64,000 nucleotides of DNA. Origin: a virus. Below are positions 2,124 through 64,000 of this stretch, piece by piece; position 1 is the first letter of the stretch, and every line of letters starts with the position of its first letter. The translations under genes and the position numbers were made by a program. The DNA is taken from positions 1 to 64,000 of IMG/VR virus record IMGVR_UViG_3300050821_024084; one strand, given 5' to 3'. The notes under the pieces were generated by a model, which was given only the letters and a program-made list of their open reading frames with translations, did no database searches and was not told where the DNA came from.

Positions 2124-4733
2124 ATGCCCGTCACGCCGTTCCGCAACTCCGGCCCGGAACCGGTCCCGATGGACACGCCCTTCGAGATCCCCGGCTGGTT
2201 CCGGTTCACCTGGTGCCGGTGGAACCACACGACGCGGAAGGCAGGCAGGGACCGCGACGGGCAGACCCGGATCAGGTACATCAAGAAGTTCGCGCTGGAA
2301 GGGGAAGTCGAGAGCTACGCGTACGGCACGTTCTGCGCGTTCCCCCGCGAGATGGACACCCAGCCGGGTCTCATCTGCGCGCCGCATGCGCGCTTCCTGG
2401 TCGCGGAGTGCGACGACGATGATGAGTTCGATCTCTCCCTGCTCGGAGACAATCCCGTCCCGACCGTGCGGTCCTCGCGAGGGTTCCACTACTACCACGC
2501 GGTCCCGCCGGAGCTGACGCACCTGATGCCAACCGACGGCCCGCTGCCGGGCGGGGATCTCCAGACGGCGGGCTTCGTGCCCGCGCCGGGCTGCACGCAC
2601 CCGTCCGGCGCGATCTACACGCTGGTGTCGGATCATCTCCCGGTAGCGGACGAGGCGATGCTGCTGCGGCTGCGCGCTGCCCGCACCCGGCAGAACGAGC
2701 GCCAGCGGGAGGTCTACCGCGAGCGCGGCGGGACGGGGGGCTACGACGGCTCAGGGATCAACGGGCAGGACGATTACCTGGCGAAGGAGATCTGCTGGAA
2801 GCTCGTCGCGCAGGGCCTGCCGGAGGCCGGGGTCCGGGAGATCTGGGAGCGGGAGGCTGCTCAGCTGCCGCTGGCCGACCCGTCCGATCCTTTCACCGGC
2901 GATGATTTCACCCGGCATTACGCAGGCGCGATGCGGAAGTACGCCCGGATGCAGGAGCGCGAGGCAGCTCCTGTGCGAGCGCTGACGAGCTGGAAGCCTA
3001 TGATAGCGGCTGCTGAGGAGAGCGAGGAAACCGTGACTGACGAGCCGTTCCCGCCGTCGCCGTTCCGTCCGGGCGCGGGCGCGTTCCGCATCAGCGACGG
3101 CCAGGTGGTCGAGGAGGTGCTGCTCCGCAAGGGCAAGGACATCCGGCTGGTCGCGTACTGCCCGATGTATGTCTCGCGGAGGATGTTCGACGACAAGGGC
3201 GAGATCCAGTACGAGATCTCCTGGAAGGCATACGACGGCCAGCTCATGCGCAGCTGCGCGACGGCGGCGGACATCCGCAATCACACCCGGCTCCTGACGG
3301 TGTTCCCGGAGGCTGTGGTGACCTCGACCGAGGCTCCGGCGCTGAGCAGGTACCTCACGAAGTACATCCAGGTGCATGCCGACGTCCTGCATGCGAATCA
3401 GGTGCGGATCGCCACCTCGCTGGGGTGGCAGAGCGGCACCGACTTGTTCGTGTCCGGCGACGGGCGTCCGTGCCAGGTGCAGGACACCGCGAATCTGGGG
3501 CGCTGGATGAGCGGTCATCAGGCATCCGGCTCACTGGAGACCTGGCGGGCGGCTCTGGAGCGCGCGCCGTGGCGGGTGCTCGTGCTGACCGCAGGCGCAT
3601 GTGCTGCTCCGCTGCTGAACATCCTTCAGGTCAATGGCTTCATCGTCAGCAACTCAGGGGAGACCACCCGGGGCAAGACGCGGGCGGCCCGGGTGGCGGC
3701 TAGCGTCTGGGGTAATCCCGAGGAGACTGTGCTCAGCTGGAGCGCCACGCGCGTCGCCCTGGAGCGCTACGCAGCGTCAGCACGAGGCGTGCCGCTCGTG
3801 GTGGATGACTCCAAGCTGGCGCGCACCGGGAACCAGATCGCGGAGATCATCTACCAGATCGCGTCGGGCACGTCGACCAGCAAGTCGGAGCGCTCGGGAG
3901 CGCGGCTCCAGGAGACGTACATCATCCGCACGGTGATGATCACGAACGGTGAGCAGCCGCTGCTGAGCGCGAGTGAGCACAGTGATGGCGGGGCGGCGGC
4001 TCGCGTGATCGAGATCTGGGGGCCTCCGTTCGAGTCTGCGGACCAGGCGGACATGCTGGACAGCGTGGTGACCGAGCATCACGGGCTGGCGGGCGAGCAT
4101 TTCGTGACCTGGCTGCTCGGCCTGGATGCGGAAGACATCCGCGCACGGTACCGGACCTTGCGCGAGAAGACCCAGGCTTCCGCGCAGACGGACGTCGCGC
4201 GCCGGCGGGGCAGTGCGATCGCCGTGCTGCGGCTGGCGGCGGAGCTGGCACATGAAGCTGGCCTCCTGCCGGAGATCGCCGAGGAACACTGGACCGAGAT
4301 CATTGCAGAGCGACCGGGTGAGGAGGGCTCTGATGATCTGCCTCGGGAGGCGCTGGAGAAACTCTGGCGTGAGGTGATGATGAACCGGAACATCTTCTGG
4401 GAGCCCCGTGACGGAGCAGGGCTCGCCTCCCAGGCGGTCCGGGGGCTCATCCCCGCCGGAGGGTTCGCTGGCCGGCTGGAGACTGAGAAGAACTGGGTGG
4501 CCGTCCGCCCGGAGTGGCTGAAGGACTTCCTGAAGAAGCACGGGCATGAGGCGGAGGGTGTCATCCGCAGCTGGGCGGAGCGCGGGTGGGTGGCTCAGAC
4601 GAAAGAGGGGAAGCGCACTATCCCGACACGGATCGCGGGCGGGTCGCCGGTAAAGCTCATCAAGGTGACCGAGCTTCCCGAAGGCGTCAGCAATATCGGC
4701 GAGGATCTTCTGCGAGACAGCGAAGATCTCTGA
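2124..4733 (+). CDS. Bifunctional primase/polymerase (AEP Prim-Pol) fused to a DUF927/Cch-like helicase
   Basis: TVRSSRGFHYY and GFVPAPGCTHPSGAIY Prim-Pol motifs; SLGW, Walker A SGETTRGKT, Walker B LVVDDS, ITNGE, ARVIEI, EHHGLAG helicase motifs; RBS AAGGAG before ATG 2124. Confidence 0.85.
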   Translation: MPVTPFRNSGPEPVPMDTPFEIPGWFRFTWCRWNHTTRKAGRDRDGQTRIRYIKKFALEGEVESYAYGTFCAFPREMDTQPGLICAPHARFLVAECDDDDEFDLSLLGDNPVPTVRSSRGFHYYHAVPPELTHLMPTDGPLPGGDLQTAGFVPAPGCTHPSGAIYTLVSDHLPVADEAMLLRLRAARTRQNERQREVYRERGGTGGYDGSGINGQDDYLAKEICWKLVAQGLPEAGVREIWEREAAQLPLADPSDPFTGDDFTRHYAGAMRKYARMQEREAAPVRALTSWKPMIAAAEESEETVTDEPFPPSPFRPGAGAFRISDGQVVEEVLLRKGKDIRLVAYCPMYVSRRMFDDKGEIQYEISWKAYDGQLMRSCATAADIRNHTRLLTVFPEAVVTSTEAPALSRYLTKYIQVHADVLHANQVRIATSLGWQSGTDLFVSGDGRPCQVQDTANLGRWMSGHQASGSLETWRAALERAPWRVLVLTAGACAAPLLNILQVNGFIVSNSGETTRGKTRAARVAASVWGNPEETVLSWSATRVALERYAASARGVPLVVDDSKLARTGNQIAEIIYQIASGTSTSKSERSGARLQETYIIRTVMITNGEQPLLSASEHSDGGAAARVIEIWGPPFESADQADMLDSVVTEHHGLAGEHFVTWLLGLDAEDIRARYRTLREKTQASAQTDVARRRGSAIAVLRLAAELAHEAGLLPEIAEEHWTEIIAERPGEEGSDDLPREALEKLWREVMMNRNIFWEPRDGAGLASQAVRGLIPAGGFAGRLETEKNWVAVRPEWLKDFLKKHGHEAEGVIRSWAERGWVAQTKEGKRTIPTRIAGGSPVKLIKVTELPEGVSNIGEDLLRDSEDL

Positions 4734-54656: not shown

Positions 54657-55244
54657 GTGTACCTGGTATACCTGACGGGAGCGCCTGCGACCGGGAAATC
54701 CTCGCTGATGGCCCGGCTGACGAACGGTCTCACGCGCGTGCCGCAGCTGGCAGACGGCGTGGTTCCGTACGAGGAGCTGCTGGCTCCTGACGGGCGGATG
54801 ACCGGTGTGGAGCTCGGCAAGCGCCGGGAGCGATTCTCCGGCACGGACGCGATGGCGTACAGCATCATGCCGAAGGTCTGCGCCTGGGTGGAGCGCTCCA
54901 TGCGCGAGCTGATGCTGGGCGAGGGCGATCGCCTGTCCAGCATGAAGTTCCTGACTGCTGCTGAGAAGGCGGGCTACGAGATACATCTCGTGCATCTGAG
55001 TGCCCGGCAGTCCGTGCTGGACGAGCGCTGCGAGGCACGAGGAAGCCGCCAGTCCCGGCACTGGCGCATCGGGCGCGTCACGATGGCTGTCCGCCTGGCG
55101 GCTCACGCAGAAGCTGCCGGGCACACGGTGCACACGCTGGATGCCGAGCGCCCGCTTGATGAGCTGGTGCGTGAGATGCGGGAGCAGATGCCGTTCCTGC
55201 TGGAACTGGGGAACGCCGATGATCCGGTTGCGACTCGCCACTAG
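54657..55244 (+). CDS. P-loop kinase, 5-hydroxymethyluracil-DNA kinase type
   Basis: YLTGAPATGKSSLM, ELGK....FSGTDAM, LGEGDRL, RC..RGS.Q. Confidence 0.78.
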   Translation: MYLVYLTGAPATGKSSLMARLTNGLTRVPQLADGVVPYEELLAPDGRMTGVELGKRRERFSGTDAMAYSIMPKVCAWVERSMRELMLGEGDRLSSMKFLTAAEKAGYEIHLVHLSARQSVLDERCEARGSRQSRHWRIGRVTMAVRLAAHAEAAGHTVHTLDAERPLDELVREMREQMPFLLELGNADDPVATRH

Positions 55245-56529
55245 AGTAGCAGATCGCGTTATCAAGGAAAAGCTCGAAGGCTATACCCTAGGTGAGCAGG
55301 ACTATGACGTCCTGGTGCGCGGGAAGGCGCTCGTGCGGATGCCGGACGGACGTCCGCTGCTGTGCTATCTGCCGGGCGTCCTGAAAGAGACCCAGGAGCG
55401 CGAGGGCGTCTACGATATTCTGCATCCGCTGTACACGCACATGACCAACAACCGGGGCGCGGCCAGCGGGACGCGGAGGATCGTCCGGGGGTCCGGCGAG
55501 AAGACCGGCAAGCGCAGCGATGCGATGTCGGTGGCCTCGCCGTTCATCGGGGCGGCAGATCCCGGCGGGATCTACCGGTACTGCCGTCTGACAGAATGGA
55601 CTGGCAGTCATCTCCCGCAGTGGGAGGCACTGCATCCGTATCTCCGGGAGATCGCGCATCACTTCGAGCAGCAGATCCCGGATCGGCATGCCGTCCAGAT
55701 GGAGTACGTGCAGCGCACCGACCACGCCTGGGTCGTGCCGGGAACGCCGTTCACCACTATCACCGTCAACAACTCGTTCGCGACGGGCGTGCACAAGGAC
55801 GCCGGGGATCTGGAGACGGGGTTCTCCGCGCTGTCCTGCCTGCGTCAGGGCGACTACGAGGGCGGCGTCCTGGTGTTTCCCGCGTATCGCATCGGGGTAG
55901 ACATGCAGGACGGGGATCTGCTGCTGATGGACGCGCATCAGTGGCACGGCAACACCCGCATGATGTGCGGCTGCGGGGAGCCTATCCAGCGGCGGTTCTG
56001 CGAGACGTGCGGGGCTGAGCGGATCAGCGTGGTGTGCTATTACCGGACTAAGATAGCCGACTGCGGCACCCCGGAAGAGGAACTGGAACGCGCCGTGACG
56101 GACACGGAGCGCCGGTCAGGACTAGGAGACGAGCTTGATGAGCGGGACACGAACTCAGACCCTGCAAGTGGACTCCCGGGCGCTCCAGCGGTACGTGCAG
56201 GGGATGACCTACCAGCAGATAGCGGACGCGGAGCAGTGCTCCGAGCAGACAGCTCACATCCGGGTCCGCCGGGCGATCCGGAACCAGTACCGGCTGGAAG
56301 CCGACGAGCTCCGCGTCGTCGCGGACGAGCAGCTCAGCTTCCTGACCCGGCAGCTGACCGCGCTGATCCACAAGAAGTCCTACAAGATAGCGCCCAACGG
56401 GAAGATCGCCGTTCACCCGGAGACCGGGGAGCCGCTGGAGGACTACAGCGAGCAGCGGATGACCGCGCTGGCGCTGCTCAAGGTGGGCGAGTCCCGGCGC
56501 AAGCTGCTCGGACTCGACCAGCCAGTTAA
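55219..56529 (+). CDS. TET/JBP-family 2OG-Fe(II) dioxygenase
   Basis: NRG.ASG, YCRLT, PFTTITVN..F.T.VHKDAGD, GDLLLMDAH.WHGNT, RISVVCYYR. The C-terminal ~130 codons overlap terS and may be non-functional. Confidence 0.85.
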   Translation: MIRLRLATRVADRVIKEKLEGYTLGEQDYDVLVRGKALVRMPDGRPLLCYLPGVLKETQEREGVYDILHPLYTHMTNNRGAASGTRRIVRGSGEKTGKRSDAMSVASPFIGAADPGGIYRYCRLTEWTGSHLPQWEALHPYLREIAHHFEQQIPDRHAVQMEYVQRTDHAWVVPGTPFTTITVNNSFATGVHKDAGDLETGFSALSCLRQGDYEGGVLVFPAYRIGVDMQDGDLLLMDAHQWHGNTRMMCGCGEPIQRRFCETCGAERISVVCYYRTKIADCGTPEEELERAVTDTERRSGLGDELDERDTNSDPASGLPGAPAVRAGDDLPADSGRGAVLRADSSHPGPPGDPEPVPAGSRRAPRRRGRAAQLPDPAADRADPQEVLQDSAQREDRRSPGDRGAAGGLQRAADDRAGAAQGGRVPAQAARTRPAS

Positions 56530-56662
56530 GCACCGGGTGGAGATCACCGACAAGATGGACTCCGAGATCGAGCGCCTGGCGCAGGATCTCGCTGCGAACG
56601 GCGCAGGCGAGCCGGTGCTGCCGGAGCTACCTGCCGGGGTGACGTCCGGTGACGGAGACTGA
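56138..56662 (+). CDS. terS: Terminase small subunit
   Basis: HTH GMTYQQIA, RRKLLGLDQP; directly upstream of terL. Confidence 0.75.
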   Translation: MSGTRTQTLQVDSRALQRYVQGMTYQQIADAEQCSEQTAHIRVRRAIRNQYRLEADELRVVADEQLSFLTRQLTALIHKKSYKIAPNGKIAVHPETGEPLEDYSEQRMTALALLKVGESRRKLLGLDQPVKHRVEITDKMDSEIERLAQDLAANGAGEPVLPELPAGVTSGDGD

Positions 56663-59390
56663 CGAGCCTCCGGAGCTCCCCCCTAACTGGCGGGATCTCG
56701 GTCCTGATGCCAAGCGCGTGCTGCTGCACAAGCTGCGCGGCATGGCGGTCAGCAAAGGACTGGGCGGACCTCGTGAGTGGCGGTCGAAAGCGCGGCCCAA
56801 GCAGCTGCCCCCGAGTGACCCAGCACATCATCTGCCGGACGGTAACGGGTTCAGATGCGGATGTTCCGGTCCTGATGAGAACTGGAATATCTGGATGTTC
56901 ATGGCCGGCCGGGGGTGTGTTGCCGGGCATACGCGCATCTGGCTACCGCTGGAGAACCGGTTCGAGCGGATCGATACGCTAGTCCGTCAGGGAGAGGCCG
57001 TCATTGTCCTCTCCCTGACGGAGAATGGCGCAGAACCACGTCAGACTGACGGGGCTCCTTTCATCGGGGGCGTGGCAGAGCTGTATGATGTGCTGACTTC
57101 GGACGGCAACCGCATCACGGTGACTGACCGGCATCGTTTCCTGACTCCGCAAGGATGGCTGCCACTCGCTCGCGTGCACGTCGGACAGCTTCTTGCCGGA
57201 GGCGCTCCCGCTCCTCCGCAGGAAGCTTCTTCACACCGGTCAGGGTGGCGTGAAGATGCTCGGAATTGGCGGGGAACACGCGAAGATTCTCCGGACGATT
57301 ATCCGAGGTATCCCCGTTCACATGATCAACTACCTCGTCAGGGGACAGGCAGCGTCCTAGCACCTGCTCCATCACGAGTCGATGCTGCCGGACATACCCG
57401 AGATTATTCATGTGAGGATGATTTCTCATCTTCACGAGAATGTAACCGTCCTCGTCGACTGCATAGCCTCCCTTCCAGAAGTAGTTATGCTCGGGACGCG
57501 CTTTCGCCTCTAGACACGGAAGTCCGAGTTCTATCAGGCGTGAGCGAACTGTCTCTGCGTTACAGCCGAGGATGGCTGCCATTTCCGTGCATGTCATCTG
57601 CTGGGCATGCAAGTCGCGGAGCTTATCAGTGTCTACAGGCATGCGACTGCCCTGAGACATGCGCTTGCGCGACAGGTCAGAAGCCCTATGCCCTCGCAGC
57701 TGCACCCCGGCACGTTGCAGAGCGCGTCCTACGGTCTGATAACTTGTTCCGGTTGTCTGAGCAAGGTCTTTCAGCGGCTCTCCTTCCTGATAGCGCCGGA
57801 TCAGGTCCGGAAGAAGATCTGACGGTATCTTGGAGTACTCTCGGCTCGGCATGTGAGCATGGTATCACGTGGACGAGAGTACGGTCGGTCCGGTCTGCGG
57901 GAACAGGATGGTTTTATGACCTGACTGTCCCTGGTGCAGAGAATTATGCGGCGGAAGGTCTCTGGCATCACAATTGCGGAAAAACCTGGTCGGGCGCTAA
58001 CTGGATAATTGAACAGGCGCTCCGGAACCCGGGAACGATGTGGGCGGTCGTTGCCCCGACATTCCGGGATGTCCGGGTCACGTGCTTCGAAGGCCCCTCC
58101 GGGATTCGACGTCTTCTTCAGCCTGGTGAGGAAGATCAATGGCGCAGGAATGAGCTGCGCCTGGATCTGGTGAATGGCTCCGTTATTTACGGGTATTCGG
58201 CTGACCAGCCGGAACGATTGCGCGGATCTAACCTTTCCGGGGCGTGGGTAGATGAAATGGGGAGTTTTGCGTATGAGGAAACCTGGTATGAGGGACTAGT
58301 CCCTGCGCTACGTATCGGGGAACATCCCCGTGTCATGGTCACCACGACTCCGCGCCCGACGAAGCTCATCCGGGATCTGTACTCGCGTCGCGACGGCACC
58401 GTTCACACCACCACGGCCTCCACCTGGGAGAATGCGGCCAACCTGTCGGCTGCCGCCCTCGATGAGCTCAAGCGCCGGTACGAAGGCACCCGGCTGGGCC
58501 GTCAGGAGCTTGAAGGCGTCCTCCTGGAGGATCTGGAAGGCGCGCTGTGGCGGCGCAGCGATATCGACGCTGCGCGAGTCAGGCCGGAGGACGTGCCAGA
58601 TCTGGCCCGCGTGGTGGTGGCGATCGACCCGGCGATGAGCGCCGACGAGGATGCTGACGAGACGGGCATCATCGTGTCCGGGGAAGACGGGCGCGGCCAC
58701 GGGTACGTCCTGGCGGACTGGTCGATGCAGGGCACGCCCGAGGCATGCATGCGGCGGGCTGTCCAGGCGTACAAGCACTACAACGCGGACTGCGTCGTGG
58801 CTGAGGTCAACAACGGCGGTGACTTTATCGGCACGGTGCTGCGCACCGTCGATCCGAATCTGCCCTACCATCAGGTGCGGGCCTCGCGCGGGAAGGCGAT
58901 CCGGGCAGAGCCTGTGTCGTCACTGGCGGAGCAGCACCGGCTGCATCACGTGGGGAACTTCCCGGAGCTGGAAGATCAGCTCTGCTCATTCGTCCCGGGA
59001 ATCGCCGGGCCGTCCCCGGACCGGCTTGACGCGCTGGTCTGGTCAGTATTCGAGCTGAAGAGCTTGTCGCAGTCCAGCTGGCTCTCCGCGTACGGAGCCA
59101 TCCGCTGCACGCAATGCGAGATGGCGTTCCGGGGCTCGGCGACGTGCCCGCGCTGCGGAGCAGATGCACCTGCATCGCCTGACGGGGGAAGCTTCTCCCC
59201 GGAGGGGGCGGGGGAGGATCGCAGCATGGGCGGCTGGGCCTCGGTGTACCGGCTGGCCAGGTGCAGCAAGGGACACGTGTACTCTGAGCGGTCCGGTGGC
59301 TGCCCGCAGTGCCGGTCCGGCGGCCTGGACTGGCTGCGCGCGCACGGCAAGCCCGGTGGACAGGCAGGTTCCGGGGCGGTAAGCTCGTAG
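56649..59390 (+). CDS. terL: Terminase large subunit with intein in Walker A
   Basis: AGRG|intein|CGKT, VVAPT, RLRG, AWVDE, TTTP, GRQEL, VVAIDP, EVNNGG, RGKAIRAEP, SPDRLDALVW. Confidence 0.95.
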   Translation: MTETDEPPELPPNWRDLGPDAKRVLLHKLRGMAVSKGLGGPREWRSKARPKQLPPSDPAHHLPDGNGFRCGCSGPDENWNIWMFMAGRGCVAGHTRIWLPLENRFERIDTLVRQGEAVIVLSLTENGAEPRQTDGAPFIGGVAELYDVLTSDGNRITVTDRHRFLTPQGWLPLARVHVGQLLAGGAPAPPQEASSHRSGWREDARNWRGTREDSPDDYPRYPRSHDQLPRQGTGSVLAPAPSRVDAAGHTRDYSCEDDFSSSRECNRPRRLHSLPSRSSYARDALSPLDTEVRVLSGVSELSLRYSRGWLPFPCMSSAGHASRGAYQCLQACDCPETCACATGQKPYALAAAPRHVAERVLRSDNLFRLSEQGLSAALLPDSAGSGPEEDLTVSWSTLGSACEHGITWTRVRSVRSAGTGWFYDLTVPGAENYAAEGLWHHNCGKTWSGANWIIEQALRNPGTMWAVVAPTFRDVRVTCFEGPSGIRRLLQPGEEDQWRRNELRLDLVNGSVIYGYSADQPERLRGSNLSGAWVDEMGSFAYEETWYEGLVPALRIGEHPRVMVTTTPRPTKLIRDLYSRRDGTVHTTTASTWENAANLSAAALDELKRRYEGTRLGRQELEGVLLEDLEGALWRRSDIDAARVRPEDVPDLARVVVAIDPAMSADEDADETGIIVSGEDGRGHGYVLADWSMQGTPEACMRRAVQAYKHYNADCVVAEVNNGGDFIGTVLRTVDPNLPYHQVRASRGKAIRAEPVSSLAEQHRLHHVGNFPELEDQLCSFVPGIAGPSPDRLDALVWSVFELKSLSQSSWLSAYGAIRCTQCEMAFRGSATCPRCGADAPASPDGGSFSPEGAGEDRSMGGWASVYRLARCSKGHVYSERSGGCPQCRSGGLDWLRAHGKPGGQAGSGAVSS
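56916..57974 (+). mobile_element. Intein (353 aa) in terL
   Basis: Starts CVAGHTRI, block B ITVTDRHRFLT, ends YDLTVPGAENYAAEGLWHHN followed by +1 Cys. Confidence 0.92.
57115..57852 (-). CDS. HNH homing endonuclease encoded antisense within the terL intein
   Basis: Two HTH repeats, NYFWKGG...GYILV...HP...GYVRQHRLVME..LGR.L...EVVDHVNGD.SDNRPENL. Confidence 0.88.
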   Translation of the reverse strand: MPSREYSKIPSDLLPDLIRRYQEGEPLKDLAQTTGTSYQTVGRALQRAGVQLRGHRASDLSRKRMSQGSRMPVDTDKLRDLHAQQMTCTEMAAILGCNAETVRSRLIELGLPCLEAKARPEHNYFWKGGYAVDEDGYILVKMRNHPHMNNLGYVRQHRLVMEQVLGRCLSPDEVVDHVNGDTSDNRPENLRVFPANSEHLHATLTGVKKLPAEERERLRQEAVRRARERVAAILAESGNDAGQSP

Positions 59391-60139: not shown

Positions 60140-63100
60140 ATGGCGCGTCGCTCCACGCTGATGGCCGCGAAGTACATGCCGGGCGCGGCGTCCCCGACCT
60201 CCGCCCCGCAGAATGCGGGGGCTCCGTACTACGGGCTCGTGTCACCGCTGGCACAGCAGCTCGCGAATGAGCGGGGCTATTCTAATTCCTACGGGCCGTT
60301 CCTGCCGAGGCCCGCGCAGACATTTACTGAGGGCGCATTCGGGCCGTTCAGCCCGATTCTCCCGGTCCCGGTAGATGCGCCTCCCGTCGAAGACGGGCTG
60401 CCGGATCCCCGGCTGTTCGAGTACCAGGTCGGGTGGAACCTGCCGGTCGGGCAGCCGGGGACCGAGGGTCTCAAGCTAGTGGATTTCGCTACGCTGCGCA
60501 CGCTGGGGGATCTGTACTCGGTCGCGCGGGCGTGCATCGAGAAACGCAAGAACGAGATCACCGGCCTGGACTGGGATATCGTGCCGACGCACGAGGCGTC
60601 CAAGGCGTACCAGGGCGACCGGAAGGCCAACCGGGATCTGGGCGAGCGCATCGCCAAGGCGAAGAAGTTCTTCCGGCAGCCGGACCCGGACTACTTCTCG
60701 TTCGGGGAATTCCTCACTGCCGTGCTGGAGATGGTGTTCGTCTACGACGCGCTGTCTATCGTGCTGCGGCCTAAGCGCGGTAAGGGGATGGGCAAAGGGC
60801 TGCTCGGGTCGGATCTGGACTGCCTGGAGCTAGTTGACGGAGCCACTATTCGCCCGCTTTTGGGAATGCACGGAGAAATTCCGAGGCCGCCCTGCTATAG
60901 CGAGGACACGGAAATTCTCACCCGGGGCGGCTGGAAGCTGTTCAGCGATCTCAAGGGAACAGAAGAAGTTGCTACCCGCTCGAAAGACGGTGTGTTTGAG
61001 TGGCAGCGGCCCACGCATTACGTGAATGAGGCGTACACCGGTCCGATGGTGCAATTCTCCGGTCGCACTATTGACTGCCTGGTAACCCCTGATCACCGGA
61101 TGCTCACGACTGTAGGTCCTGACGGCTGGTCCGAGGCTAGCCGGGTGCGAGACAGTAAAGGACGGATCTGCGGTCATGCAGACGGTAAGGACGGGACTCA
61201 GCGGGAATGGATCACATCGGCGCAGCGTCTCCTGGAAAGAAAGCAGGCAGGCGCAAAAAAGGATGACCGGCTGGTAGCTGTCAGCTCGTGGCACGGGCGC
61301 GAGCTGCGGAGTGCCACGTTTACCGTCACGGGCCAGGTGTTTCGGTGGGACGATGGTGATGTGCATCGTGCAGAGGGACCGGAAATCCCTGCGGATGTGC
61401 GGGATCACTCAGTAGAGATGACGGGTGATCAGTACGCGGCCTTCATGGGCATGTACCTGTCTGAAGGCGGTCTCATCCACGACAGAGAAAAGCACGGCTA
61501 CCGGATTACCATCAGCCAGACCGCGAACGGAAAGGGAATCGCGGAGTACGGACAGCTTATCCAGGAGCTATTCGGTGATCTTCGGCGAGGCTCTGGCGGG
61601 TGGAATATCTGGAGGAAGGCGCTGTGGCGGTACTGCCATCAGTTCGGATACGCACCGGATAAGTTCGCGCCACCCGAAGTGCTTGATATGTCGCGGCGTC
61701 AGCTCAAGATATTCTGGAGGTACTACTGGCTAGGCGACGGGCATACGGAGCACACACAGGAGCAGGAAGTCGTGGCGACCTCCAGCTGTCTGATGGCGGG
61801 CGCGTTCCAGGAAATCATCCAGAAACTCGGGTACTCATCATCTGCTCGCCCTAGTGGTGATGGCTATTATCGCTTGCGTACACGGAAGACTGCCTATCCC
61901 GGGTATAACGCTAAGCAGGCTGATTACTCGGGGCGTGTTTACTGCGTGACGGTGCCGAATGGTATTGTTTATGTCCGGAGGAATGGCCGGGCGGTGTGGT
62001 CAGGAAATTCGCCCGCCTACCAGCAGTACCTTTACGGCGTGCCGCGCAGCGACTACATGACAATGATCACGCAGCGGGACATTGATGAAGGCGGCCTGGC
62101 CGGATCCGAGATCCAGTCGTTCACGTCGGATCAGCTGCTGTACCTGCGCACTACTCCCCGGCGCTGGACGCCGTATGGCTTCGCTAACCTGGAGCAGTCG
62201 CTCATCCCGGTGCTGACGGGGCTGCAAAAGCAGGCGTATCAGCTTGATTATTTTCGTGAGGGATGCTATTCTCCGGACACTGAGATTCTCACGAAAGATG
62301 GCTGGAAGCTCTTCCCGGACCTGACCTACGACGATGAGCTTGCTACTCGAAGCGAGCAGGGAGACTTCCGCTGGCATCGACCGGAAGCCATTCTTTCGTA
62401 CGACTTCGACGGGGAGCTGCTCGCTTTTCAGAGCAAGGCAGTAGATCAGCTTGTGACACCTGGTCACAGGATGATCGTGCAGCACCTGCCATCCTACGTG
62501 CGTGATCACCCGGCTACTCCGGAACATGGCTGGCACGTGCGGCTCGCGAAATATTTCGCCGAGCATCCAAGCGCCCAGTTCCAGATGCCGGCGACGTCTC
62601 GCTGGACAGGACCCGAGCCGGAGTACCAGGAAATCGACACCTGGCGCAAGGTCAAGCGGCAGTATGGTACGGAGAAGGCCATCACGTGGCTCCGCGAGCA
62701 CCTGGTGCCGGGTGAGTGGGCTCCGTCTGCGCAGGTGCTCAAGTCTGCTCAGGCAGCAGGCGTCGGGAGAAACTCTCTTGAGCGTGCGAAAGACGTGCTC
62801 GGGATACAATCACGACGCGTCGGCAGCACGCGCTCCGGAAGGGGAGTTTCTTTCTGGGAGATGCGTCTTCCTGCTGAAGACCTGGCTGTGCTGGAGCGCG
62901 CAGAGGAAATCCGTACGGGAAGCCGCCGGATCCCGATGAAGGAGTTCTGCGGGCTCCTTGGCCTGTATATCTCAGAGGGCTGGGTGCGATCAGATCGTAA
63001 TGATGTACTCATTGCCCAGCATGCGGATAATCCGCGTATCGAGCGTATTCGCGAGATACTGGACAGTACCGGGCTGCACTGGAGCTATCAGGAATCGAAC

Positions 63101-64000
63101 CAGAGATTCGCGGTGTGCAGCAAGGACCTCGCGCGCTGGCTTCGGGATAACTGCCCGGGACGGGCATGGGAGAAGCGCATTCCGGTTCGGTTCAAGAACC
63201 TCGGCCCGGAATGCCTCGCCGCTCTGATGGAGGGTCTGACACTCGGAGATGCGCATCTCGGCCCAGCTGGTCAGCGTTACTACACAACGACAAGCCCTGG
63301 TCTTGCAGACGATGTGCAGGAGATTTTCCAGAAGCTCGGGTGTGATGCCTGGATTCGCCAGACGAAGATGGAGAAGTATTTTTCTGGTGAATACGGTGAG
63401 ACTCCGTATGGCGGTCACGCGCGACGGCAGATGTATGTCGTCCGGGAACGGATGCAGGATGCTCATATGGTTCCTGCGCCTGTGCCTGTTTCGTACACCG
63501 GAAAAGTCTGGTGCGTGACTGTCCCCGGTGGGGTGGTCTATGTCCGGCGGAATGGTCGCGCTATCTGGTGCGGGAATACTATCCCCGGCATCTATATCAG
63601 CCCCGGGGACCCCAACATGACCCCGAATCAGATCCGGGAACTGCAAGACGCCCTGAACGCGATTGCCGGGGACCCCGCCTGGCATCACAAGGTCATCGTG
63701 CTGCCGCCCGGCTCCAAGACCGAGCCGCAGCGCCCGGTGGATCTCGCTGACCAGTTCGACGAGATCCTGATGACTGAAGTCTGCATGAACTTCGACATCA
63801 ACCCGATGGACCTGGGCATCGTCCCCAAGGTCAGCACTGCCGTCTCGCCGTTCGCGGCGCGTGAGATGGCGCAGGCATCCAAGACGGTGCACGAGCGGAC
63901 CGCGACCAAGCCGCTGCTGAAGTTCCTCTGCAACATCTTCGACTCCATCCTGCATCGCGTCTGCGGTCAGGATGATATGAAGTTCACGTTCGAGGGCCTG
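60140..64000 (+). CDS. Portal protein (truncated by the window end) with two inteins
   Basis: ATG 60140. YSVARACIE.R..EI.GLDWDI, YDALS, LELVDGATIRP, AYQQYLYG, QLLYL...PR.WTPYG..LEQ, QLDYFREG, KPLL motifs stay in one frame; follows the terminase. Confidence 0.88.
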   Translation, partial: MARRSTLMAAKYMPGAASPTSAPQNAGAPYYGLVSPLAQQLANERGYSNSYGPFLPRPAQTFTEGAFGPFSPILPVPVDAPPVEDGLPDPRLFEYQVGWNLPVGQPGTEGLKLVDFATLRTLGDLYSVARACIEKRKNEITGLDWDIVPTHEASKAYQGDRKANRDLGERIAKAKKFFRQPDPDYFSFGEFLTAVLEMVFVYDALSIVLRPKRGKGMGKGLLGSDLDCLELVDGATIRPLLGMHGEIPRPPCYSEDTEILTRGGWKLFSDLKGTEEVATRSKDGVFEWQRPTHYVNEAYTGPMVQFSGRTIDCLVTPDHRMLTTVGPDGWSEASRVRDSKGRICGHADGKDGTQREWITSAQRLLERKQAGAKKDDRLVAVSSWHGRELRSATFTVTGQVFRWDDGDVHRAEGPEIPADVRDHSVEMTGDQYAAFMGMYLSEGGLIHDREKHGYRITISQTANGKGIAEYGQLIQELFGDLRRGSGGWNIWRKALWRYCHQFGYAPDKFAPPEVLDMSRRQLKIFWRYYWLGDGHTEHTQEQEVVATSSCLMAGAFQEIIQKLGYSSSARPSGDGYYRLRTRKTAYPGYNAKQADYSGRVYCVTVPNGIVYVRRNGRAVWSGNSPAYQQYLYGVPRSDYMTMITQRDIDEGGLAGSEIQSFTSDQLLYLRTTPRRWTPYGFANLEQSLIPVLTGLQKQAYQLDYFREGCYSPDTEILTKDGWKLFPDLTYDDELATRSEQGDFRWHRPEAILSYDFDGELLAFQSKAVDQLVTPGHRMIVQHLPSYVRDHPATPEHGWHVRLAKYFAEHPSAQFQMPATSRWTGPEPEYQEIDTWRKVKRQYGTEKAITWLREHLVPGEWAPSAQVLKSAQAAGVGRNSLERAKDVLGIQSRRVGSTRSGRGVSFWEMRLPAEDLAVLERAEEIRTGSRRIPMKEFCGLLGLYISEGWVRSDRNDVLIAQHADNPRIERIREILDSTGLHWSYQESNQRFAVCSKDLARWLRDNCPGRAWEKRIPVRFKNLGPECLAALMEGLTLGDAHLGPAGQRYYTTTSPGLADDVQEIFQKLGCDAWIRQTKMEKYFSGEYGETPYGGHARRQMYVVRERMQDAHMVPAPVPVSYTGKVWCVTVPGGVVYVRRNGRAIWCGNTIPGIYISPGDPNMTPNQIRELQDALNAIAGDPAWHHKVIVLPPGSKTEPQRPVDLADQFDEILMTEVCMNFDINPMDLGIVPKVSTAVSPFAAREMAQASKTVHERTATKPLLKFLCNIFDSILHRVCGQDDMKFTFEGL
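60893..62008 (+). mobile_element. Intein 1 in portal (LAGLIDADG, 372 aa)
   Basis: CYSEDTEILT..., VTPDHRM, FMGMYLSEG, YWLGDG, ...VRRNGRAVWSGN followed by +1 Ser. Confidence 0.9.
62264..63577 (+). mobile_element. Intein 2 in portal (LAGLIDADG, 438 aa)
   Basis: CYSPDTEILT..., VTPGHRM, LLGLYISEG, LTLGD, ...VRRNGRAIWCGN followed by +1 Thr. Confidence 0.9.

Follow-up and report, generated by a model that had tools for sequence, protein, structure and literature searches.

Introduction

Homing endonucleases encoded on the strand opposite to the intein that carries them have been described in several proteins. Antisense LAGLIDADG nucleases are found in the inteins of Synechocystis DnaX and of a Chloroflexus SpoVR-like protein (Gorbalenya, 1998; Gogarten, 2002; both as outlined in bioRxiv 10.1101/2025.01.02.630785), and antisense LAGLIDADG and VSR-like nucleases have been reported from inteins in the large terminase subunit (TerL) and other proteins of actinophages (Gosselin, Arsenault and Gogarten, bioRxiv 10.1101/2025.01.02.630785). 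The same preprint describes an out-of-frame EndoVII-like nuclease in an actinophage and gives HNH nucleases only as in-frame domains (bioRxiv 10.1101/2025.01.02.630785), and the published antisense composites, LAGLIDADG and VSR-like, are reported as rare. Here we describe an intein with an antisense HNH gene in the terminase gene terL of a provirus, the 101-kb IMG/VR record IMGVR_UViG_3300050821_024084 (65% G+C), of which positions 1 to 64,000 were analyzed; this whole stretch of 64,000 nucleotides is referred to as the window. A preliminary description of this DNA, made from the sequence alone, had pointed to the arrangement and had mentioned alternate-frame endonucleases in some actinophage inteins, as the preprint bears out. 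In our judgment the locus is very likely a two-strand selfish element, in which a plus-strand intein in the Walker A motif of TerL is combined with a minus-strand homing HNH gene.

The antisense HNH gene is the HNH version of a layout already published for LAGLIDADG and VSR-like nucleases. As in the inteins of the preprint, an antisense endonuclease is flanked by the splicing blocks, the host frame stays open, the in-frame middle of the intein is unstructured, and TerL is a frequent host; the origin proposed there, a free-standing endonuclease entering an intein, is also considered here. Unlike the published antisense nucleases, the one described here has two helix-turn-helix (HTH) units followed by an HNH_3 core, and it belongs to a large family (about 80 loci and more than 250 protein clusters) that is spread over several bacterial phyla and at least six P-loop families with fixed phase and offsets. 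We found no antisense HNH in an intein in the full-text literature searched, which is no proof of absence since many subscription papers lie outside it. The closest HNH case is the ShiLan insertion in a phage DNA methylase, where the nuclease is hidden in an out-of-frame ORF of the same strand and no splicing domain can be detected (Arsenault, Gosselin and Gogarten, 2025, Genes 16:178, PMC11855218). Both nucleases occupy another frame of an insertion that is open in the host frame, and their cores are 49–51% identical over residues 121–193; unlike that of ShiLan, however, the HNH of the window is antisense and flanked by a complete intein.

Inteins in the P-loop of mycobacteriophage TerL are known at the “classic” site between K and T and one residue away from it (Kelley et al., 2016, mBio, PMC5050341). 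The intein of the window is likewise a class-1 intein in the ATPase P-loop of TerL with presence and absence among related alleles, whereas its site, G↓xGK[ST] (the arrow marks the junction), lies two residues upstream of K↓T. Unlike in canonical mobile inteins, the nuclease is a separate antisense gene and not a domain of the intein. Separate nucleases are familiar from collaborative homing, in which free-standing homing endonuclease genes move together with introns. They are also familiar from fractured genes, in which a free-standing homing endonuclease lies between the halves of a split intein (Dassa et al., 2009, as cited in bioRxiv 10.1101/2025.01.02.630785). The present element resembles both in that the splicing element and the nuclease would be separate products moving together; it differs from fractured genes in that the host gene is unsplit and a continuous frame of 913 amino acids (aa) extends across the nuclease gene.

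A Class-1 Intein in the Walker A Motif of TerL

The terL precursor is encoded on the plus strand by an open reading frame (ORF) at 56649–59390, whose 913-aa product including the intein matches Terminase_6N (1e-19), Terminase_6C (1e-13), and the PHROG terminase large subunit (1e-31). The N-extein (89 aa; 56649–56915, plus strand) ends in ...FMAGRG, the first half of Walker A, and the C-extein (471 aa and the stop codon; 57975–59390, plus strand) starts with CGKT and contains the TerL ATPase and nuclease domains, with Terminase_6N and Terminase_6C together covering terL residues 443–801. Between them lies a 353-aa insert (56916–57974, plus strand) with the sequence features of a class-1 intein, so that the junctions in the translated ORF read ...FMAGRG↓CVAGHTRI...LWHHN↓CGKTWSG. 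The signature of the class is complete, comprising C1, T70-x-x-H73 in block B, H352-N353, and the +1 Cys of CGKT, and residues C1, H73, D335, G348, H352, and N353 are invariant in an alignment of 47 intein relatives. The Pfam family Intein_splicing matches at 4e-12, above its gathering score, and covers just the two ends of the insert. The preliminary description had placed an intein with normal splicing blocks at 56916–57974, splitting Walker A as GRG↓CGKT, and it is borne out by the junctions, the Pfam match, and the invariant residues alike.

In an AlphaFold2 model built on 47 sequences, the two ends of the intein consist of beta structure with a pLDDT (predicted local distance difference test) of 93–98, and they are confidently predicted to form a HINT fold. 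The N-terminal splicing domain (intein aa 1–100; 56916–57215, plus strand; pLDDT 93–98) carries block A and block B, the latter with TDRH at terL residues 159–162, and the C-terminal splicing domain (intein aa 312–353; 57849–57974, plus strand; pLDDT 94–98) carries blocks F and G and ends in ...FYDLTVPGAENYAAEGLWHHN. The translated spacer between them (intein aa 101–311; 57216–57848, plus strand) is stop-free, antisense to the body of the HNH gene, rich in Ser, Arg, and Ala, and predicted to be disordered; over aa 101–310 the model has a pLDDT of 40–55 and no secondary structure, and the spacer has no Pfam or PHROG match. The middle of the intein had been described before as about 240 codons of non-protein sequence kept free of stops. 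This holds as to its nature and not as to its length, which is about 210 codons, as the last 25–35 codons of the HNH gene overlap the functional splicing domain at block B. We infer splicing because the gene whose Walker A motif is split by the insert is essential, and because removal of the insert would yield AGRGCGKT, the sequence of natural empty alleles. A split intein or fractured gene was rejected, terL being a single 913-aa ORF, and so was an intron, as no Rfam intron family matched (sole match at E=0.32).

The HNH Gene on the Opposite Strand

The minus strand of the intein encodes, at 57115–57852, a protein of 245 aa (followed by a stop codon) with two HTH units (aa 14–47 and 75–109), an HNH_3 nuclease core (aa 125–205), and a C-terminal tail that lies over block B. 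The HNH_3 family of Pfam matches residues 156–196 at 3.5e-12 (46.2 bits against a cut-off of 24.8), HTH_58 and further HTH models match the N-terminal part, and the HNH families of PHROG match with a best value of 5e-24; the coordinates and the HTH-HTH-HNH order given in the preliminary description were thus correct. Among 46 HNH homologs, D176, D181, N185, N189, N196, and H199 are invariant and H177 nearly so, and the window copy, which is the only one in the provirus, has all the invariant residues of the core. An AlphaFold2 model built on these 46 homologs reaches a mean pLDDT of 83 and shows two three-helix units (aa 14–47 and 75–109) and a strand-strand-helix core (aa 130–204) with pLDDT above 90. 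A profile search of the PDB sequences matched the HTH part only (2lvs, 1e-6), and the N-terminal half of the protein resembles tandem-HTH proteins such as 2lvs. On these grounds the antisense ORF is identified as a gene for an HTH-HTH-HNH_3 nuclease, with its nuclease activity and target site presumed.

Dual Coding and Selection on Both Strands

Across the HNH gene (57115–57852) the terL frame has no stop codon, whereas the other four frames have 6–17. When the HNH gene was shuffled synonymously, with its protein and codon usage kept, a mean of 5.6 stops appeared in the terL frame (P of none = 4e-4), and when its codons were redrawn from the usage of the exteins the mean was 4.8 (P of none = 0.004). 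The two frames are offset so that their first codon positions coincide, and a stop in the host frame then requires an HNH codon NTT, NTC, or NCT followed by a codon beginning with A; all 36 dipeptides of the HNH protein that are at risk in this way escape host-frame stops through synonymous choice. The same is seen beyond the window, with no stop in the host frame of 76 related loci against a mean of 4.3 expected per locus. The open terL frame across the HNH gene is not a matter of chance and is held by selection, as had been supposed earlier. Base composition differs between the two readings, since in the minus frame the G+C content at codon positions 1/2/3 is protein-like (0.69/0.44/0.60), whereas that of the third position in the terL frame is 0.44 over the HNH gene vs. 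0.71–0.77 in the exteins.

Selection on the two proteins was gauged by the divergence at each codon position (d1/d2/d3) and by the identity in both frames, using codon alignments guided by the HNH protein. In the HNH frame, position 3 has diverged about three times as much as positions 1 and 2, with d1/d2/d3 of 0.14/0.13/0.43 for pairs at 75–90% identity and 0.23/0.20/0.56 between the window and its relative L004. On the same DNA the window and L004 are 0.64 identical in the HNH frame vs. 0.34 in the host frame, and the HNH frame is the more conserved one in 2767 of 2767 pairs. The antisense ORF is thus under purifying selection, in agreement with the antisense coding proposed in the preliminary description. 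Position 3 of the HNH codons is position 2 of the host codons, which is the most variable site in the spacer, and therefore the plus-frame peptide is not conserved as a protein.

This HNH-type periodicity holds from codon 1 to about codon 215 of the gene. Over the final 25 codons the pattern reverses, with HNH-frame d1/d2/d3 going from 0.3/0.3/0.6 to 0.15/0.41/0.21, and it is only here, at terL residues 157–181 with block B (TDRH) and the strands after it, that the host-frame periodicity returns. The doubly constrained zone at 57115–57192 (both strands) places HNH codons 221–245 and the stop codon over intein aa 67–93 (terL aa 156–182, block B), and substitutions in it are dominated by the intein frame. 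The strongly conserved tail of the HNH protein, AILAxSGNGAGQSP, owes its conservation to the intein and not to the nuclease, because it lies where the substitution pattern flips. About 25–35 terminal HNH codons are therefore constrained from both strands, and the remaining plus frame is merely kept open.

Putative Start Signals

In Actinobacteria, such as Mycobacterium and Streptomyces, transcriptomes have shown that leaderless genes have a −10 box TAnnnT about 6–7 nt upstream of their A/GTG start codon. A putative extended −10 box of this kind, TGaTACCAT, is located at 57859–57867 on the minus strand (positions −15 to −7), where it ends 6 nt upstream of the HNH start codon ATG (57852) and lies inside coding sequence just upstream of block F. 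When the relatives are aligned from the end of the intein, TAnnnT is present at −12 to −7 of the HNH start in 15 of 16 close ones. The conserved bases of the box fall partly on wobble positions of the host frame, and the host peptide encoded there varies (EHGITW, LDCIAW, MDDTRW, etc.). Distant members of the family carry Shine-Dalgarno sequences of the GGAGG type instead. The TAnnnT box is most likely the promoter of a leaderless antisense HNH mRNA, a reading for which the comparison among relatives is evidence and not proof.

Empty and Occupied Alleles

A search with the C-extein returned seven closest alleles (73–78% identity, 553–580 aa) with an uninterrupted Walker A motif AGRGCGKT, which is exactly the predicted product of splicing, and one allele (P0126; 76% identity, 931 aa) with an intein at the same site. 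Presence and absence at one exact site among close terL alleles is the mark of a mobile intein. Three further alleles (P0129–P0131; 66–74% identity) have an intact AGRG(C/T)GKT, but they are 823–851 aa long and match Intein_splicing, and therefore close relatives have an intein at a different site of terL; in the lineage of the window, terL would be a multi-site target of inteins. No close relative of the window terL was found in a DNA-level search of GenBank phages. At the protein level, the TerL matches in GenBank phages start either at residue 444, as in intein-less proteins, or at 421–423, within block F/G of the intein. The latter include those of the cultured Streptomyces phage mu1/6 (H44/H45) and Dinoroseobacter phage R26L (H43), in which the same Walker A site is probably occupied by an intein.

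Just downstream of terL, the portal gene (60140–64000 of the window, plus strand; weak Phage_portal match in Pfam) holds two related inteins that start with CYSEDTEILT and CYSPDTEILT. In these LAGLIDADG_3 is in frame (5e-14), and therefore one phage holds canonical inteins with an in-frame endonuclease beside the intein with the antisense HNH. Upstream of the terminase genes, at 54657–55241 on the plus strand, a P-loop nucleotide kinase is encoded (Ploopntkinase3, 2e-33).

A Widespread Family

Relatives were collected as 107 loci encoding HNH homologs in IMG/VR and GTDB genomes; on the viral contigs a query with the single protein gave 2 loci, and an alignment-based scan recovered the larger set. 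The homologs form more than 250 protein clusters, many of them 50–67% identical over their full length. At 80 loci one antisense frame (500–2900 aa) stays open over the full extent of the HNH match, and at 79 of these 80 the relative phase is that of the window. Some 70 loci share the junctions G↓C(V/I/L)xGxT...(H/N)HN↓[CST]GK[ST], with the C-terminal one reading ...NY.AEG..HHN↓[CST]GK[ST], and their inteins are 272–398 aa long. The HNH start lies 122 nt from the C-terminus of the intein in 11 of 21 tabulated relatives, which are the closest ones, and the stop offset is 199 nt in 6 of the 21. The composite of intein and antisense HNH appears from these comparisons to be old and to spread as one unit, because the phase is shared by 79 of the 80 loci and the start and stop offsets are fixed in close relatives. 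For the same reason the invasion of a mini-intein by an HNH gene recently and in this phage, which had been proposed in the preliminary description, is unlikely, and neither can the layout be called rare, as it had been there, when the same composite is found at about 80 loci and in more than 250 protein clusters.

The exteins that follow the intein belong to quite different families: Terminase_6N (25 loci), Terminase_3 (17), giant AAA_34/Strawberry-notch-like proteins (5), AAA (2), DNA_pol3_delta2 (1), SNF2 (1), and DEAD (1). The unit of intein and HNH is thus present in terminases, helicases, AAA ATPases, and a clamp-loader-like protein, and therefore the HNH travels with the intein and not with the function of the terminase. 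The loci include metagenome-assembled genomes (MAGs) of Kineosporiaceae, Mycobacterium, Tepidisphaeraceae, Acidobacteria, Leptolyngbyaceae, and Peribacteria, as well as a Polaromonas isolate. Among cultured phages, Pectobacterium phage Ymer (OP748252.2, record positions 2451–4715) has beside its portal gene a 754-aa gene that reads ...VAGFG↓CVHPHT...HIHHN↓TGKSQT and is probably the terL precursor; it is annotated as “hypothetical protein” and carries an unannotated antisense HNH ORF of 232 aa. The same kind of HNH match was obtained in six more Pectobacterium phages and in Dickeya phage Setonix.

The ORFs of L015, L016, L086, L092, L045, and L032 (IMG/VR and Polaromonas sp. CG9_12) exceed 2800 aa and are open across the whole fetched locus; they encode LPD1, AAA_34, and Helicase_C_4 domains, as in Strawberry-notch-like polyvalent proteins, and have the intein with its antisense HNH at HHN↓TG(V/L/I)GKG. 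In a Woesearchaeota MAG (L097), a relative of the HNH lies antisense and in the same phase inside an N6_N4_Mtase ORF without an intein signature, and it may be the antisense counterpart of the ShiLan-type non-splicing insertion.

No intein halves flank the free-standing relatives of the HNH, save in two cases at contig ends (L063 and L095). In a FastTree phylogeny, of which the deep branches are weak, the free-standing relatives are scattered with weak support, and a single origin of the embedding is compatible with this tree but not proven by it. As to how the nuclease came to be embedded, the data fit both intein invasion and inversion of an in-frame HNH domain, and do not tell the two apart. 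We see an even chance for a fuller reading of the family, namely that it is an old composite element, consisting of a P-loop intein and an antisense HNH with its own start signals in the intein-coding DNA, whose dual-coding phase has stayed fixed while the HNH diverged to about 30% identity, and which has moved, presumably because the HNH recognizes Walker-A-coding DNA, between P-loop NTPases of at least six families, across phages and elements from several bacterial phyla. Such an element is absent from the searchable literature.

Proposed Mechanism and Alternatives

The scheme that we propose starts from the anatomy, the selection on both strands, the AlphaFold2 folds, the family-wide layout, and the empty-site alleles, all established above, and it adds transcription, splicing, nuclease activity, and target site as the steps that we infer. 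After translation, the HINT halves (intein aa 1–100 and 312–353) would fold together and excise the 353-aa insert with its disordered spacer of about 210 aa, restoring AGRGCGKT. The HNH would be transcribed as a leaderless mRNA from the TGnTAnnnT box 6 nt upstream of its ATG, within the part of the gene that encodes the C-terminus of the intein. Its product would cut or nick terL alleles that lack the intein, in or close to the DNA that encodes Walker A, and repair from an intein-bearing copy during co-infection would copy the intein and the HNH gene together, which is homing. Selection maintains the HNH protein, both halves of the splicing domain, and a host frame free of stops over the HNH gene.

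Several observations weigh against this scheme. The HNH start codon at 57852 is not preceded by a Shine-Dalgarno sequence, and a scan of 56500–58500 for consensus sigma-70 sites found no promoter, although the TTGACA/TATAAT model used is ill-suited to a high-GC actinobacterial host; because of these two negatives the expression of the HNH has to rest on the leaderless model. The conservation of the box could in part be inherited, as it lies in coding DNA and the sequences are related. A Foldseek search with the whole chain of the multi-domain HNH model gave no match at E≤0.001, and I-HmuI (1u3e) came at rank 39 with a probability of 0.57; the multi-domain architecture probably defeats a whole-chain search. 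Finally, in 4 of the 80 relatives the HNH is interrupted by a stop codon while the host frame is still open, which means that decay of the nuclease need not entail loss of the intein, and a recent missense mutation may have inactivated the window copy as well. The four broken loci fit, as expected, the decay phase of the homing cycle.

Among the rival explanations, the least improbable is that the HNH of this prophage is a relic, no longer expressed or active, in an intein that persists because its precise loss is hard, late in the homing cycle. The interrupted relatives with their open host frame show that such decay occurs, and the element resides in a provirus, where co-infection may be rare; yet the ORF is intact, full length, and complete in the invariant residues of its catalytic core, the −10 box TACCAT and the ATG stand at the positions usual in the family, and purifying selection includes this very lineage (between the window and L004 or L006, d3 is 0.56 and both d1 and d2 are about 0.2), so that we hold a relic to be improbable. 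In HK97-like phages, a terminase-associated HNH assists DNA cleavage in packaging, and an HNH gene nested within terL for co-regulation might be a packaging helper of this sort. HNH genes adjoining terminase genes are indeed common in phages (PMC3592412). Against such a helper stand the occurrence of the same unit in Strawberry-notch-like and SNF2 helicases, AAA ATPases, and a clamp-loader-like protein, the kinship of the HNH, whose nearest named relatives are free-standing or hidden nucleases of the homing type such as that of the ShiLan methylase insertion (49–51% core identity), and the closest terL alleles, which lack the HNH entirely and thus show it to be dispensable for packaging. We regard this explanation as very improbable.

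The open frame would also be explained if the plus-strand middle of the intein had a function of its own, as a regulated linker or a novel in-frame domain. Every precursor molecule contains it in translated form and its plus frame keeps a weak identity of 0.19–0.34, but the constraint from the overlapping HNH would by itself leave this much identity, position 2 of the host codons is the most variable, and the low pLDDT (40–55), the want of secondary structure, and the lack of Pfam or PHROG matches make a functional spacer a shade less credible than the packaging helper. Least credible of all is that the insert is not an intein and is instead an intron or a non-splicing insertion, open by chance. 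Insertions of the ShiLan type with a hidden HNH and no splicing domain do exist (PMC11855218), and the methylase relative L097 has no intein signature; here, in contrast, all intein blocks are present with a confident HINT fold, no Rfam intron family is found, and a retained insert of 353 aa in Walker A would wreck the ATPase. The two-strand selfish element accordingly keeps our preference.

Implications

For annotation, the layout means that gene callers miss the HNH or leave the terminase unnamed, as with the Ymer precursor. The cultured carriers, namely the Pectobacterium phages (checked for Ymer), open splicing, antisense expression, and homing to direct tests, and the antisense HNH nucleases are candidates for enzymes that act site-specifically on conserved P-loop DNA. 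The antisense-HNH intein is also a clean natural case of antisense dual coding in which one strand need only be free of stops. Inteins are thought to have become mobile through the capture of free-standing nucleases, and the missing intermediates of that process are composites whose nuclease has remained a gene of its own; the antisense-HNH family shows that a composite of this kind can persist stably, become abundant, and move widely. If the reading as an old composite is true, it would be the most abundant long-term antisense dual coding known for any selfish element, and would offer a natural model of nuclease acquisition by inteins.

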